DNA of 43,319 nt from a phage: the sequence record PX907400.1, one strand, 5' to 3'. The notes below the pieces were generated by a model. It had not been told where the DNA came from, did no database searches, and worked only from the letters and a program-made list of their open reading frames with translations. Both the position numbers and the translations under genes were made by a program. Positions 1 through 5,799 of this stretch are shown here, one piece after another. The first letter of the stretch is position 1. Each line of letters opens with the position of its first letter.

Positions 1-99
1 GGCGGCCCCCGCCGCCTTGGTAAGCCCGTTCAGTTGTGATGTGGTTTTATCGACGCCGGTCGATGATACTCGTACTATCAAGCTAGCGGTATCAGCCAT
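1..99 (-). CDS. tail tape measure protein, first 33 codons (gene continues across the window boundary into 41142..43319)
   Basis: ATG at 99..97 overlaps the stop of the upstream chaperone ORF (ATGGCTGA); the frame is open to position 1 and in frame with the ORF running off the other window end. Confidence 0.5.
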   Translation of the reverse strand, partial: MADTASLIVRVSSTGVDKTTSQLNGLTKAAGAA

Positions 100-424
100 G
101 ATTTCTACCTTCAAAGATTGCTTCTAAGCCCATGATAATGTCTATCTCGAACAGGCTAAGCTGTTTTTGCGTAACATCGAGATAGGCTTTCAGGTCTTGC
201 CACGTAACGGATTCTCTTGCGAACAATACTACAGCGTCCTCGCGCACGTGTCGCGTAAACTTAATGTCGCAGTACGTCTCGAAGGTGGATATAAAAAGGG
301 GCGGGCATTCTGGCCCACCCCGTCGCGCTGCACGTTTTTTCTTATCGATTACACCCATCGCGATAAGCGCCTGTTCGTGTCCGTCGGCTATAGAATCAAA
401 CTCTCTGATTTTATGCTTATCCAC
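92..424 (-). CDS. tail assembly chaperone, -1 frame extension ORF (gpT-like), probably expressed as a G-T fusion
   Basis: Open -1 frame overlaps the last codons of ORF 457..873 and sits between the chaperone and tape measure genes; GGAAAAG near the G stop. Confidence 0.5.
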   Translation of the reverse strand: MDKHKIREFDSIADGHEQALIAMGVIDKKKRAARRGGPECPPLFISTFETYCDIKFTRHVREDAVVLFARESVTWQDLKAYLDVTQKQLSLFEIDIIMGLEAIFEGRNHG

Positions 425-456
425 AAACTCATAGGTGGCGAACCTGTACAGCGCGT

Positions 457-873
457 CTACTTTTCCTGTAATGCTTTGCGCTCAGCGTTATGGAACGCCG
501 CTACCTGTGTGCCTAATGCCTTGAACTGGTCCAGCAATTTGTTAAATGCTTCTTTAGAGAAAGGCTCATCAAAGCTCCAGCCGTTTACGACTTCTGCCGC
601 GAGTTGCCGGTTGAGGTCTTCCGCCAGTTCGTTAATAGCCAGGTTATATTCAGTATAGTCGCCGGATTCTTTGGCGGCTTTTTCCAGTTCTTCGAAACGC
701 GCCAACCCGCGACGGTACGCAATAATGAAAGCACGCCCCGCTTTAACGGCGGCATCCGCATCTGGATTTACAACGTTAAGCCACTCACCGGAGTCTTCGC
801 CATTCGGCAGGAGAATCGGCATCTTCTTGCCCGCCAGTGCTTTCTCTTCGAAATAAAAATCAGAAAGTTTCAT
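457..873 (-). CDS. tail assembly chaperone (gpG-like)
   Basis: 138 aa ORF directly upstream of the tape measure start, ATG at 873, lambda G/T-like arrangement. Confidence 0.55.
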   Translation of the reverse strand: MKLSDFYFEEKALAGKKMPILLPNGEDSGEWLNVVNPDADAAVKAGRAFIIAYRRGLARFEELEKAAKESGDYTEYNLAINELAEDLNRQLAAEVVNGWSFDEPFSKEAFNKLLDQFKALGTQVAAFHNAERKALQEK

Positions 874-981
874 TCTTTAATCCTTTGGTTAAGAGGTTAC
901 AGGTTAACGATAAATGCGCCAGACGGGAACCACCCGCTTTTCGTGTGCGACACTAGGCGCAAAATTATTCTATCACATTAC

Positions 982-1010
982 TTGCACACCCCAATATAAT
1001 AGGGTACTAT
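982..1010 (+). promoter_or_regulatory. sigma70-like promoter (-35 TTGCAC, 17-nt spacer, -10 TACTAT) with embedded AATAG-N4-CTATT operator
   Basis: Same architecture recurs at 20134..20162 and 21460..21489 upstream of minus-strand genes. Confidence 0.4.
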
Positions 1011-1040
1011 TCACTTACCCCAACAATGGAGGGATTTAAA

Positions 1041-1232
1041 ATGTCAAGTTTACCAGTTTCCTTAATTCTGTTTGCACTTCTCGTTTATTTTGCGCCTTTC
1101 CTGGTTGCGTACTTCCGTAACCATAAAGCGAAGTTAGCGATATTCATGGCTAATCTGTTTCTTGGCTGGGCGCTGCTGCCGTGGGTCTTTATTTTAATCT
1201 GGGCGTGCAACTCGAATGTTAACGAGAAGTGA
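1041..1232 (+). CDS. superinfection-immunity-like small membrane protein (Imm family-like)
   Basis: Two hydrophobic helices with FLGW...W...LIWA pattern; GGAGGG Shine-Dalgarno before ATG 1041 (track ORF starts at 1026). Confidence 0.5.
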   Translation: MSSLPVSLILFALLVYFAPFLVAYFRNHKAKLAIFMANLFLGWALLPWVFILIWACNSNVNEK

Positions 1233-1270
1233 GCTAGTATAGGACAAATCCTAAACACGAGGAAGTAAGT

Positions 1271-2401
1271 ATGGCCCAGAAGAAAATAACCGACGAACAG
1301 TTGCAGGAAGAATTGAACGCCGGGATGAAGAATATCGATATAGCTCGTAAATACGGCATCTCTGACCGCGTTATCCGTATCCGTAAAGCGAAGCTGGCTA
1401 AGAAAGGCGTAGGCCACGGGCGCGACGTTAGTCACCTTGTGCCGGACGGCTACAAGATTAAAGGAACGTCGTCGCTGGTGGACGAGTTCGGCAACACTAA
1501 GTTGCAATGGGTTAAGACCGACACCGATGCGGAACGTCAGGTCGAGTTAATGAAGGCCGTAATCGAGGGCATGAAGTCGGAGATTACCCCAGTTGCTCCT
1601 GTTAAAGCGACTCGGGCCAAACGTGACGATAAACTACTCAATCTTTACACTGTATCTGATTTCCATCTCGGTATGCTGGCATGGGCAGACGAGAGCGGCG
1701 ACGACTGGGACATGAAGATTGCAGAAGACCTGTTCTCTCGGTGGTTTGATGCCGCGTTTCAGAAAGCGCCTGACGCCGGAACAGGAGTTATTAACCTGCT
1801 GGGTGACCTTGCGCACTTCGATAGTCTGGACGCCGTTACCCCCGCAAGTGGTCATGTTCTTGATGCGGACACGCGCTATCAGAAACTGGTACGCTACATG
1901 ATTCGTATGGTACGTCGTGTTGTCGATATGGCCCTCGCTAAGCATAAAACTGTTCGCTTGCTTATCGTGCAAGGGAACCACGACGAAAGCGGAATGATTT
2001 GGTTAGCTGAGATGTTCAGCACGCTATATGACAATGAGCCGCGTGTGTTCGTCGATACGTCTCCAGATGTTTACAAGATGGTGCAACACGGCAAAACGAC
2101 ATTGTTCTTTCACCACGGGCATAAAGCACGCTTCGACGCTATCGAACCGGTTATGATTGCCAAGTTCCGCAAAGCGTTCGGCGAGAGCGTTTATAGCTAC
2201 GCCCACGTGGGTCACCTGCACCACCAAAAGATTGTAGAAAGCCGTAACATGATTGTTGAGCAACACCGCACTCTCGCGGCTAAAGATGCATATGCCTCCC
2301 GCGGTGGGTGGATGTCGGGCCGCAGTGCAAATGTAATTACTTATAGCGCCGAATATGGTGAGGTCGCACGTTTAACTATTTCACCGGAGATGCTGGGATG
2401 A
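1271..2401 (+). CDS. calcineurin-like metallophosphoesterase with N-terminal HTH domain
   Basis: Motifs DFH, GDLAH, GNHDE, HHGH, GHLHH; N-terminal HTH-like segment; AGGAAG Shine-Dalgarno. Confidence 0.7.
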   Translation: MAQKKITDEQLQEELNAGMKNIDIARKYGISDRVIRIRKAKLAKKGVGHGRDVSHLVPDGYKIKGTSSLVDEFGNTKLQWVKTDTDAERQVELMKAVIEGMKSEITPVAPVKATRAKRDDKLLNLYTVSDFHLGMLAWADESGDDWDMKIAEDLFSRWFDAAFQKAPDAGTGVINLLGDLAHFDSLDAVTPASGHVLDADTRYQKLVRYMIRMVRRVVDMALAKHKTVRLLIVQGNHDESGMIWLAEMFSTLYDNEPRVFVDTSPDVYKMVQHGKTTLFFHHGHKARFDAIEPVMIAKFRKAFGESVYSYAHVGHLHHQKIVESRNMIVEQHRTLAAKDAYASRGGWMSGRSANVITYSAEYGEVARLTISPEMLG

Positions 2402-2883
2402 AAGATATTGTGATTTTCGATTTAGACGGGACATTGGCGGACGGTACACATCGTTTACACCTGCTGCCGAAAGATAACTACAACGAAACATGGGCGTGGA
2501 AACCATTTAACATGGCGTGCAAAGATGATGAACCAATTAGAGATAACATCGAGCTGTGTAACGCCCTTAATCGCCGCTATGCCGTTATTATTTTAACGGG
2601 TCGCAGTGATGACGCAGAAAAAGAAACAAGAATGTGGCTGCAGCGCCACCGCGTCGAATTTTATCAGTTAATCATGCGCAGCAAACACGACAACAGAAAA
2701 GACATCGTAATTAAGGAAGAGGTGCTACGTGCTATCGGGTTAGAAAGAATCTTGTGCGCGTTCGACGATTCGCCTGCGGTGATTAAACATTTCCGCAGCT
2801 TAGGAATCACGACACACGCGGTTACGGAATACGGCTGCAACGGTACTTCTACACACTTAAAATCACACGGGAGCGATAAATAA
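2398..2883 (+). CDS. HAD-family phosphatase resembling the T4 Pnk 3'-phosphatase domain
   Basis: N-terminal DLDGTL (DxDxT) motif, TGRS and KEE motifs; ATGA overlap with the upstream gene. Confidence 0.65.
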   Translation: MKDIVIFDLDGTLADGTHRLHLLPKDNYNETWAWKPFNMACKDDEPIRDNIELCNALNRRYAVIILTGRSDDAEKETRMWLQRHRVEFYQLIMRSKHDNRKDIVIKEEVLRAIGLERILCAFDDSPAVIKHFRSLGITTHAVTEYGCNGTSTHLKSHGSDK

Positions 2884-3437
2884 TGGCTAAGGTAATCATC
2901 CTTAACGGACCTGCGGGATGCGGCAAAGATACGCTCGCTAGGGCGCTGGTAGAAATGGGTTTTGCGAAAGGAACCACCAGCTTCAAGAATCCAATGTTCA
3001 ATATCGCTCTTGCGGCATTAGGGCCAGATGCGTATCACGAGTTCCTCGACGGCTACGACGACCGGGCACGTAAAGAAAAGCCAGAAGGTTTCCTTAATGG
3101 GTTGTCTCGTCGTCAGTTCATGATTGCTATCTCTGAACAATTCATTAAACCGGTCCTCGGCAGCGATTATTTCGGTAAGTATCTCGCTGAAAACTTGCCC
3201 GACGGCGACGAAGTTTTTATAGTGTCCGACGGCGGGTTTGCCAGTGAAGTAGCCCCTATCGTCACCGCGGGTCATGATGTAAGAATCGTTCGCTTGCACC
3301 GAGAAGGCTATACGTTTGACGGGGATAGCCGGGGATATCTGTACGATATTGGTGGTGTTGAAGATTGTGATGCGTACATCATACCGGGGGACGTTAAATC
3401 TAACGTGATAGACATTGCTTTAAAATTAGGTTTGTAA
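2883..3437 (+). CDS. P-loop kinase, dNMP kinase-like (T4 gp1-like); a polynucleotide kinase role is not excluded
   Basis: Walker A GPAGCGKDT; overall resemblance to T4 gp1; start overlaps the upstream stop (TAATG). Confidence 0.65.
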   Translation: MAKVIILNGPAGCGKDTLARALVEMGFAKGTTSFKNPMFNIALAALGPDAYHEFLDGYDDRARKEKPEGFLNGLSRRQFMIAISEQFIKPVLGSDYFGKYLAENLPDGDEVFIVSDGGFASEVAPIVTAGHDVRIVRLHREGYTFDGDSRGYLYDIGGVEDCDAYIIPGDVKSNVIDIALKLGL

Positions 3438-3440
3438 GAA

Positions 3441-3467
3441 AAAGGCCCCTCTCGGGGCCTTAGTTTT
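3441..3467. terminator. bidirectional rho-independent terminator between convergent genes
   Basis: AGGCCCC-TCTC-GGGGCCT stem-loop flanked by T-runs on both strands. Confidence 0.6.
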
Positions 3468-4632
3468 ATGCGTAGGTGATACGCTGGATAACAATAGACG
3501 ACTGATACTGATTGCCAGTAGCCTGGCCTTCGATGGACTGAGTGATTGACTCAGGCCCGCCAATCTCAGGTGTAACCGCGGTAAGTTCTGCACGTTTCAA
3601 GCTGAAAGACATAGCCCCGTTTACCCCCGCCAGAATAGAGTTAATCTCTACCTGCTGCTCGTTGATAAACTTCTGAATCATAGCCATGTCGTACAGCTTA
3701 CCGGAGATGGAGAAGGTGTTAGCCGCGCGGCTACGCTCCACAAACGCCACGTTAGTGTTGCCGAGTTCGAACTGTGCGGACGCGCTGTTGTCGTTGGTGA
3801 TGGTCAGGCTGTCGCAACGCAACGGCGTAGAACCGTCGAACACAGAAACATCGACCGAGGAGAACGGCTCGTCACCAAACGTAACAGAGGAGAAATCAGA
3901 ACCAGACGGCTGCGTGGTGAGAATCTCCTGACTGCGACCGATGAACGGGAAGCTGCCAGTTACCATAGCGTTAACAGCCTGTTCGATGGTAAAACCAGAA
4001 ACTTCCACGCCTTTGGTTAGTGTGTACGCGTCAGTCCCGCCGCACTGGCCTTTGTACCAGGTGAGAATAGAGAACGTCTTGCACTGGCTTCCCGTTTCCA
4101 GTTTATCCCCTGTCTTAGCGGCGGTAGTTACTGTCTCTGTGGTCAGGGTATGCTGGATACCCGCCCCGGTCACTACCAGTGCCTCTACTGCAGTTACGAT
4201 AAACGGTTTTGCGTTGTCACCGGTTAAGTCGGTAAACGCAATCAGGTCGCCCACTTCAACGCCGTCAGAAATAAAGCTACCTTCGGCACGGGTAAAGGTC
4301 TTGCCGGCAGGCGCGACGGTAATTGATAGCCTGGTCAGAGAACTACCGGATTGCCATGTAGAGCCTAAAGCACCCGCCAGCCAGTCGTCCTGGCTTTTCG
4401 AGCTAAGCTCAATAGCGTATTCTCCGCTAACCTGCTTGTTACCGGTGCGGATTGACGTAGTTTCACGGCTGCCGTCCAGTTCGTTGGAGGTCAGCGTGTC
4501 GCGAGTAATAGCAGGAACGCCACCTGTGTTACGCAACGGCGACCAGACAGGGTTGTCTGGTGTTACGCCCGGGACAGTCTCCGCCACATAGAATTGCGCG
4601 GTAGTCGCGCCCTTAAAAGGAGTTGTAGCCAT
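3466..4632 (-). CDS. major tail protein (tail tube), putative
   Basis: Position after neck genes and before the tail chaperones; ATG 4632 with AAGAGG Shine-Dalgarno (track gives GTG at 4638). Confidence 0.55.
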   Translation of the reverse strand: MATTPFKGATTAQFYVAETVPGVTPDNPVWSPLRNTGGVPAITRDTLTSNELDGSRETTSIRTGNKQVSGEYAIELSSKSQDDWLAGALGSTWQSGSSLTRLSITVAPAGKTFTRAEGSFISDGVEVGDLIAFTDLTGDNAKPFIVTAVEALVVTGAGIQHTLTTETVTTAAKTGDKLETGSQCKTFSILTWYKGQCGGTDAYTLTKGVEVSGFTIEQAVNAMVTGSFPFIGRSQEILTTQPSGSDFSSVTFGDEPFSSVDVSVFDGSTPLRCDSLTITNDNSASAQFELGNTNVAFVERSRAANTFSISGKLYDMAMIQKFINEQQVEINSILAGVNGAMSFSLKRAELTAVTPEIGGPESITQSIEGQATGNQYQSSIVIQRITYA

Positions 4633-4634
4633 AT

Positions 4635-5051
4635 TCACAGCCTCTTGGTGAATGCAATAAAGTTAATTGACAATGGTCGTTTGGCCCATCCGTTTTCTAC
4701 AATCAGCGGCCCCAGGCTAACCGATTGAACCTCGGCGCAGATGTCGTTACGAGAAAATGACTTACCTGCTTTGAATGCCGTGTTAAGTAAGTCTGCCATT
4801 TTATTGATTGGCGCGCTACCTTTCACCGATGCGTAGTTAATGTCGACCTGATAAACACCCGCGCGTTGTTCCGTGAAGAACAAATCTGCTTGCTCGGTAT
4901 CCGCCAGTAACATGTAACTTGCCAGATATGGCGTATCGGTTGACGTCGGCGCGTCGATGTTTTCAAGCGCGACATTGATGCCGTTGGCGGTTCCGAAGGC
5001 TACCAGCGGAACATCGAACGCTTTTGTTAAGTCCTCAAAGTAGCCCATCAT
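4635..5051 (-). CDS. tail completion/terminator-like protein, putative
   Basis: 138 aa ORF in the neck region, overlapping its neighbours. Confidence 0.4.
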   Translation of the reverse strand: MMGYFEDLTKAFDVPLVAFGTANGINVALENIDAPTSTDTPYLASYMLLADTEQADLFFTEQRAGVYQVDINYASVKGSAPINKMADLLNTAFKAGKSFSRNDICAEVQSVSLGPLIVENGWAKRPLSINFIAFTKRL

Positions 5052-5443
5052 TTCACCTTGTTGGCTTCTTCGTTAATGAGTTGCTGGAAGCGGGACACAT
5101 TAGTCCTGACAACCCCGGCGGGGGCCTGTTGCGACCAGCCATACTCCAGCCGTTGTGCATACGGCAGATTATTTGTCAGCGTGAACTCGCGCCAGTCTGT
5201 AGCTTTAAGCACGAAACTTGTAGCGTTTCCGGTTGCCGTGTTTCCTGATTTATCCGTAGCGTCTGTAATTCCGGAAGCGGGAGTGCCGCCAGACGCCATC
5301 CAGTTCATACGAAAGCGACCTGTATCTACCGGACTTGCCTTTATGATAGCGGAAAACAGTTTGATAGACACCTGACGCATCACCTTCTCGGGGTTCTTCT
5401 TCGCCTTTTCCACGAACTTAGAGACATCAAGCGCGAAACTCAT
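5048..5443 (-). CDS. HK97 gp10-like head-tail joining protein, putative
   Basis: PVDTGRFR motif recalled from the gp10 family; position in the neck module. Confidence 0.45.
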   Translation of the reverse strand: MSFALDVSKFVEKAKKNPEKVMRQVSIKLFSAIIKASPVDTGRFRMNWMASGGTPASGITDATDKSGNTATGNATSFVLKATDWREFTLTNNLPYAQRLEYGWSQQAPAGVVRTNVSRFQQLINEEANKVK

Positions 5444-5799
5444 TTTCTCACCTGAATAAAATACGCCACGACATCATCGTTAACCATCTTCTTCTCGATA
5501 GCTACGACAGACCATTGCTCGCCGCCGAATTGTACCTTGTCTTCCATTTTTGGCACGACACTGCAATCCGCTTTAACAACCATGTCTCCCGCCTGAATGG
5601 TTGTGCCGTTAACCAAGCCCGAGTTAACCGGAACGGGTACGGCTTTCAGCGGCAGCACTTCATCATCTGACCAGATGTATTCGCCGAGAACTTCATCCCA
5701 CACTTTCGAGCCAGCGCGAACCAGAGATACCGTGCTGCCGAATTTGGCTAGCAGGCGTGTACCCACGCCCTGCATACGTTTACTAAAGGCGGTGCTCAT
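5440..5799 (-). CDS. head-tail connector protein, putative
   Basis: ATG 5799 with GGAGG Shine-Dalgarno (the track ORF extends to 5853 without one). Confidence 0.4.
   Translation of the reverse strand: MSTAFSKRMQGVGTRLLAKFGSTVSLVRAGSKVWDEVLGEYIWSDDEVLPLKAVPVPVNSGLVNGTTIQAGDMVVKADCSVVPKMEDKVQFGGEQWSVVAIEKKMVNDDVVAYFIQVRK

Follow-up and report, generated by a model that had tools for sequence, protein, structure and literature searches.

Organisation of the locus

The window considered here, the whole of a 43,319-nucleotide stretch of phage DNA (sequence record PX907400.1), is on nucleotide similarity that of a Kagunavirus of the K1G/K1ind-like kind; its bases 1-1300 share 97.6% nucleotide identity with Escherichia phages K1ind2, K1ind3 and P AB-2017, and 94-97% with many other Kagunavirus genomes (Guernseyvirinae). 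tRNA genes were sought in the window and none were found. The features that concern us are the following:

457..873, minus strand: G-like tail assembly chaperone ORF of 138 amino acids (ATG 873-871 to TAG 459-457)
460..466, minus strand: candidate shift site G_GAA_AAG (core A_AAG 463-460; AAG 462-460 is the last sense codon of G)
457..459, minus strand: zero-frame TAG, directly 3' of the shift site; proposed 'shifty stop'
482..484, minus strand: -1 frame TGA, the 5' limit of the 22-nt interval in which the shift must occur
92..460, minus strand: T part, -1 frame (GTA 460-458, 122 sense codons, TGA 94-92)
92..873, minus strand, join(873..460, 460..92): predicted G-T fusion CDS of 260 amino acids (junction ...ALQEK/VDALYRF...)
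424..426, minus strand: GTG, the first canonical start codon of the T frame (codon 13 after the shift)
1..99, minus strand: 5' end of the tape-measure gene (ATG 99-97), which continues past the left end of the window

The chaperone pair and the tape-measure gene all lie on the minus strand, with the G and T ORFs directly upstream of the tape-measure gene and T overlapping G in the -1 frame. As the tape-measure ATG lies at 99-97, ATGGCTGA overlaps the T stop (TGA 94-92). The corresponding gene is annotated as tape measure in K1ind2, fTaEco01 and Bas74. The next tail gene upstream of G is the tube gene (3466..4638, minus strand; Phage_tube_2, E=4.5e-40), itself preceded by the tail terminator gene. 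Between tube and G sits a 2.4-kb block of four genes on the opposite strand (1026..3437, plus strand), which encode a superinfection immunity protein, a metallophosphoesterase/exonuclease, a polynucleotide kinase and a dNMP kinase; opposite-strand genes are arranged in the same way between tube and chaperone in K1ind2. Because these four genes break the tube-chaperone-tape measure order, the genes from G to the tape measure must be served by a separate promoter within 874..1025.

The 138-residue G-like chaperone is the product of standard decoding. It matches Pfam Phage_TAC_4 (E=8.2e-6, 26.5 bits against a cut-off of 21.1), and the product of the downstream -1 frame matches Phage_TAC_18 (E=9.7e-19, 67.7 bits against a threshold of 27); a Pfam search of both parts gave no match to any other chaperone family, and a search of solved structures gave no relevant match. 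The pair as a whole matches phrog_15027 ('tail assembly chaperone'), in which the G part occupies positions 1-138 of 259 (E=8e-72) and the T part positions 139-259 of 259 (E=2e-69). Since both parts align end to end to one 259-position family, that family was built from fusion proteins.

Reading frames across the junction

The original prediction, made from the letters of the sequence and a list of its open reading frames, placed a -1 frameshift at the end of G. Its description of the site is accurate: G does end CAG GAA AAG TAG, read directly at 468-457 (CAG 468-466, GAA 465-463, AAG 462-460, TAG 459-457); GGAAAAG (466-460) is indeed one base away from the lambda sequence GGGAAAG; and the site holds the shift-prone A_AAG, at 463-460, which the literature ranks as the best tetramer in E. 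coli. It had further described the -1 frame as open across the end of G and as continuing through the ORF at 92..424 to overlap the start of the tape-measure gene. That frame proves to be open from 481 through 122 sense codons to TGA 94-92; the ORF at 92..424 lies in the same frame, and the overlapped start is the ATG at 99-97. Across the junction the -1 frame reads ...ACA GGA AAA GTA GAC GCG CTG..., and the +1 frame through the region is full of stops. By our own arithmetic, an open stretch of 122 codons would arise by chance with a probability of ~0.003 under uniform codons.

Comparison of six divergent lineages over the 35 codons right after the stop gave a pN/pS of 0.39 for the -1 frame, the other two frames having 1.43 and 1.37; this pattern of substitution indicates that purifying selection acts on the -1 frame as early as the first codon past the stop. 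The residues at the junction are themselves conserved as K-V-x-A-L-Y/C, and V1, A3 and L4 are invariant in a nine-sequence alignment of T.

Conservation of the site among relatives

Relatives were gathered in two ways: 31 IMG/VR loci were recovered through the G protein (49-99% identity) and 78 loci through alignment of the T part (38-100% identity). In all 31 of the former, A AAG is followed by TAG or TAA, with a -1 ORF of 121-122 codons after the stop except at one locus cut by the end of its contig; AAAG stands at the junction in 78 of the 78 T-based loci. The overlap of the -1 ORF, which the original prediction had proposed to check in related phages, recurs there, as does the A_AAG, and the prediction's assertion that this is the conserved position for tail chaperone frameshifting also stands, with the ORFs directly before the tape-measure gene, both products in chaperone families and A_AAG at every T-based junction.

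What precedes the tetramer is far less constant. The heptamers of the T-based loci are GGAAAAG (61), CGCAAAG (9), AGCAAAG (3), AAAAAAG (2) and, once each, GGGAAAG, GGCAAAG and GTCAAAG, so that the codon before AAG may be GAA, GCA, GGA, AAA or UCA. A canonical X_XXY_YYZ heptamer is found in only 3 of the 78 relatives, and the G_GAA_AAG of the window is not of that form. The stop codon directly after A_AAG is TAG at 56 of the 78 loci and TAA at 21; it is read by RF1 as UAG in three quarters of loci. The sole relative whose stop does not adjoin A_AAG is L086 (IMGVR_UViG_2162886012_000023), which reads C GCA AAG TTA TAG. As the preceding codon varies, the conserved signal, as these alignments present it, is the tetranucleotide A_AAG together with a TAG or TAA stop and not a lambda-like heptamer.

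The space in which a shift could take place also narrows among relatives. The distance from the -1 frame stop to the zero-frame stop is 22 nt in the window, 16 nt in some Kagunaviruses and 7 nt at loci L025 and L026; with an overlap as short as 7 nt, a shift site common to every lineage has to fall within the last two codons. CGC_AAA_GCA was considered as another slip site within the 22-nt overlap, and was rejected as it needs a mismatch at the first position and is excluded by the 16-nt and 7-nt overlaps.

Beyond these samples, Vibrio, Pseudomonas and Serratia phages (L037, L038 and L039, with G at 27-31% identity) keep a -1 ORF before the tape-measure gene. A PKGS motif is shared by the -1 frames of these three, their candidate shift sites differ, and the two parts are annotated as separate hypothetical genes.

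A proposed frameshift on A_AAG

Taken together, these sequence comparisons lead us to read 873..92 (minus strand) as a Kagunavirus tail-assembly chaperone pair with a G/GT-type -1 frameshift on A_AAG, from which a fusion protein is predicted; we put the probability of this reading at roughly 85%. The G/GT-type shift originally proposed survives in all of its sequence-level predictions, and what falls away is the lambda-like heptamer as the unit that is conserved. Most ribosomes would stop at TAG 459-457, having made the 138-residue G-like protein. A minority would slip back by one nucleotide on A_AAG (463-460), with tRNA-Lys re-pairing from AAG to AAA, and would then read GUA GAC GCG CUG and onwards to give a G-T fusion of 260 residues ending at TGA 94-92, over the start of the tape-measure gene. 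The predicted Glu-C peptide spanning the fusion junction is KVDALYRFATYE. By analogy with gpG and gpGT of lambda, the abundant G would coat the tape-measure protein and the T domain of the rarer GT would recruit the tail tube protein, with both G and GT absent from the virion. We infer the occurrence, efficiency and sub-mechanism of the shift; the efficiency is probably a few percent or less, a low value which fits the ~30:1 ratio of G to GT needed in lambda.

As to how the ribosome might slip, we somewhat favour a single peptidyl-tRNA-Lys slip with a stop codon waiting in the A site, because the P-site codon varies and no RNA stimulator could be detected. The peptidyl-tRNA-Lys, paired with AAG in the P site while UAG or UAA is slowly decoded in the A site, would slip to AAA, after which GUA would be decoded. 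According to the literature, no other tetramer in E. coli comes near A_AA.G in its tendency to shift, which is put down to the single tRNA-Lys of this host, as it reads AAA as well as AAG and re-pairs cognately. Reporter assays place tetramers that lack a stimulator barely over background, at ~0.15%. Since unstimulated tetramers are barely shifty, the near-universal adjacent stop is the obvious candidate stimulator, and the idea of a 'shifty stop' is cited in a review (Atkins 2016).

A simultaneous slip of two tRNAs on the heptamer, from GAA to GGA in the P site and from AAG to AAA in the A site, would make the stop irrelevant, and is a possible variant of the same frameshift to which we give rather less credence. 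tRNA-Glu on GGA would, we reason, keep two Watson-Crick pairs and a central G:U, and one relative carries the lambda heptamer G_GGA_AAG and two carry A_AAA_AAG, both of which are highly shift-prone in E. coli. Yet C_GCA_AAG, A_GCA_AAG and G_UCA_AAG stand at the same position in other relatives and allow no re-pairing in the P site. A slip that made no use of the stop would also sit poorly with a stop that is adjacent at 77 of the 78 loci and is TGA at none of them, though with TGA, too, the -1 frame would retain Val (as GUG). Among the stops of a rough gene set from the window, TAG is the rarest (6/56, ~11%) and TGA accounts for ~39%; set against this general use, the absence of TGA at the junction is a weak hint.

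Returning to the single-tRNA slip favoured above, stimulators of the kinds known from other systems were sought around the site. Folding of 111 nt of the window downstream gave a value within those of shuffled controls (z=-0.02); 57-nt segments from seven lineages showed nothing beyond shuffles, with z ranging from -0.79 to +0.49 across all folds; and a consensus fold of 12 representatives had three pairs and no covariation. A search of window positions 1..1300 against Rfam frameshift elements returned none at a permissive threshold, and neither the dnaX-type nor the IS3/IS911-type arrangement (a stem-loop or pseudoknot 5-9 nt after the site, an SD-like sequence 10-14 nt before it) is present. 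Two further candidates were rejected. AGGA, as an upstream SD-like stimulator, is wrongly spaced at 1 nt from the site and lacks conservation. The block GCGCTGT that follows the stop is invariant in the first 12 representatives, but Jerseyvirus-like phages have GCGTTG and other variants occur; the block is therefore best explained as Ala-Leu codons with host-preferred usage. This phage group forms a clean natural series in which A_AAG is fixed, the P-site codon is varied, a UAG or UAA is adjacent and no structure was detected; as such, it could be used to test how strongly -1 slippage in E. coli is stimulated by a stop codon on its own.

Annotation in public records

The tail chaperone -1 frameshift site at this locus is real but ordinary, and has been annotated in near-identical phages since 2010. 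A joined CDS spanning 782 nt, 'ORF21B', stands beside a 138-residue 'ORF21A' in RefSeq NC_041898 (K1ind2) and GenBank MT711527 (fTaEco01). To locate the deposited proteins, fusions were built from K1ind2 and fTaEco01 DNA with the junction at Lys (...ALQEK/VDALY...) and looked up as exact sequences in protein collections. The K1ind2 fusion was found as ADA82419.1, ADA82468.1, YP_009597354.1 and UniProt D2XJT9, and the fTaEco01 fusion as ADA82267.1 and YP_009168804.1 (both K1G) and QNO11738.1 (fKuEco01), so that a fusion with the junction EK/VD is on deposit for K1G and K1ind2/3; a fusion shifted one codon earlier (QGK junction) was absent from the collection on exact look-up. The 260-residue fusion predicted for the window differs by three residues from those of K1ind2 (ADA82419.1/YP_009597354.1) and K1G (ADA82267.1/YP_009168804.1). 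The ORF21A/ORF21B pairs of K1G, K1ind1, K1ind2 and K1ind3 (GU196277-81; NC_027993, NC_041897, NC_041898) belong to the same genus and have the same CAG GAA AAG TAG; they show no difference of substance from the window, and their joined CDS is likewise a prediction. The literature on Guernseyvirinae phages yielded no experimental GT product, in vivo ratio or assembly requirement.

Public records disagree, with T joined to G in some and a separate gene in others. In the records of Bas74, SETP7 and Shashou, T is a separate CDS of 119 residues with a CTG or TTG start six bases after the G stop (945..947 in Bas74, L002; 1323..1325 in Shashou, L036; 1323..1325 in SETP7, L040). The announcement of Shashou, whose site matches that of the window exactly, reports 'no canonical slippery sequence' there. 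The present analysis settles the conflict between this statement and the joined-ORF records; the appropriate annotation for the window is the 260-residue fusion as join(873..460, 460..92), and the 'hypothetical protein' of 110-119 residues produced by automatic pipelines should be dropped.

Could T be translated on its own?

The separate entries imply that T is an independent gene which starts just after the G stop, either at CTG 451-449 with AGGA at 467-464 or at the GTG at 424, and the Shashou record does mark AGGA as a ribosome-binding site. We consider such a gene improbable. The window and most lineages have CTG as the proposed codon, TTG appearing only in Jerseyvirus-like ones, and AGGA is lacking wherever the site is CGCAAAG or AGCAAAG. 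The GTG at 424, which the original prediction had put forward as the rival start, is not preceded by an SD sequence, and most lineages lack it. More generally, no positionally conserved ATG, GTG, TTG or SD sequence was found within the first 40 codons of T, a stretch that in three lineages contains no such start codon at all. Moreover, conserved codons lie ahead of any proposed start: the Val codon, which takes its G from AAG and its TA from the stop, does not vary, and nearly all relatives keep the Ala-Leu two codons past it. Coding constraint from the first codon, conservation across the junction and the lack of a conserved start argue strongly against independent initiation and reinitiation alike.

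Reinitiation, in which ribosomes that terminate at TAG would scan locally and restart on a near-cognate codon of the T frame, is more improbable still. The stop adjoins the T frame, and overlapping or abutting genes are common in the operon, as at the T/tape-measure junction; against this, no restart codon is conserved, and A_AAG as the last codon at 78 of 78 loci would be left without explanation. Transcriptional slippage on the A run can be set aside as having a negligible probability, for although four A are present at the site of the window, the GCAAAG lineages have three, and the homopolymers known to cause slippage of RNA polymerase are far longer.

Likeness to other frameshift systems

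The frameshift on A_AAG proposed here has a counterpart in lambda, where gpG and gpGT are likewise two chaperone products of overlapping ORFs directly upstream of the tape-measure gene, made by a -1 shift onto A_AAG near the 3' end of G. The lambda site is the canonical heptamer G_GGA_AAG and lies a few codons before the G stop, whereas the P-site codon in the window is GAA, varies among relatives, and is part of a site immediately followed by the stop. The locus differs from lambda, too, in that its proteins are of the Phage_TAC_4 and Phage_TAC_18 families and in having the 2.4-kb opposite-strand block between tube and G. G would be expected to outnumber GT greatly here, as it does in lambda, for which G:GT is ~30:1 (Levin 1993; Xu, Hendrix and Duda 2004, 2013, 2014, summarised in PMC5009743).

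Natural precedents for a site of the form NNA_AAG are provided by Bacillus cdd (A_CGA_AAG) and the IS1222 transposase (G_CGA_AAG), in which tRNA-Lys moves from AAG to AAA and the P-site codon has no canonical re-pairing; their biological context differs, and IS elements usually add a downstream structure, whereas none is detectable here. Serratia phage Tlacuache has GGC CGA AAG as its candidate site, a CGA_AAG of the IS1222/cdd type. Burkholderia phage KL1 gp18/gp19 resembles the window in having a predicted tail-chaperone -1 site immediately upstream of the zero-frame stop, and is unlike it in its canonical GGGAAAC, its TGA stop and a proposed downstream stem-loop.

Other features of the region

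The T ORF contains a terminator-like hairpin at 289..321 (minus strand), which on the mRNA strand reads GGGGUGGGC-CAGAAU-GCCCGCCCC followed by UUUUUAUAU. Its stem (321..298) has 9 bp, 8 of them G-C pairs, and RNAfold gives -20.6 kcal/mol. It lies ~136 nt 3' of the shift site and is therefore too far away to stimulate the shift. Among 37 distinct relatives, the three outer pairs switch among G-C, A-U and C-G, and these switches alter the amino acids encoded by each arm. The share of paired cells is 74.5%, compared with 67.4% for shuffles, and none of 500 shuffles matches either the observed pairing value or the covariation score. Pairing is preserved in all of the Kagunavirus stem variants, and the hairpin is weak or absent in Jerseyvirus-like and some other lineages. 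One possible role is that of a partial terminator or a 3' stabiliser, within a stretch translated by few ribosomes. A broader and more speculative proposal, which we think unlikely, is that Guernseyvirinae would use a minimal, structure-less signal of A_AAG and UAG or UAA whose efficiency would be set by release factor competition (RF1 for UAG), and that the hairpin at 321..289 would act as a partial intrinsic terminator or 3' stabiliser setting the ratio of G to tape-measure transcript, with frameshifted lead ribosomes counteracting it.

The leader of the G gene (963..899, minus strand) matches Rfam RF02996, the int-alpA RNA, over its full length, at 31.8 bits (E=2e-4), just under the gathering score of 35.8. 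The same match occurs 25-90 nt upstream of the G start in three divergent relatives, at 33.8 bits in L012, 33.5 in L021 and 32.5 in L036 (Shashou).

The RefSeq record of K1ind2 holds a second joined CDS, ORF14A/14B, named 'tail completion or Neck1 protein' and corresponding to ~5048..5799 (minus strand) of the window. Its junction in the window, at 5440..5446, is AGA AAA TGA, an A_AAA tetramer and stop with an ATGA overlap. The downstream ORF has its own ATG, with GGTGAG upstream, and a weak HK97-gp10-like match. Given the ATGA overlap, the separate ATG and the GGTGAG, ordinary translational coupling is at least as likely at this junction.
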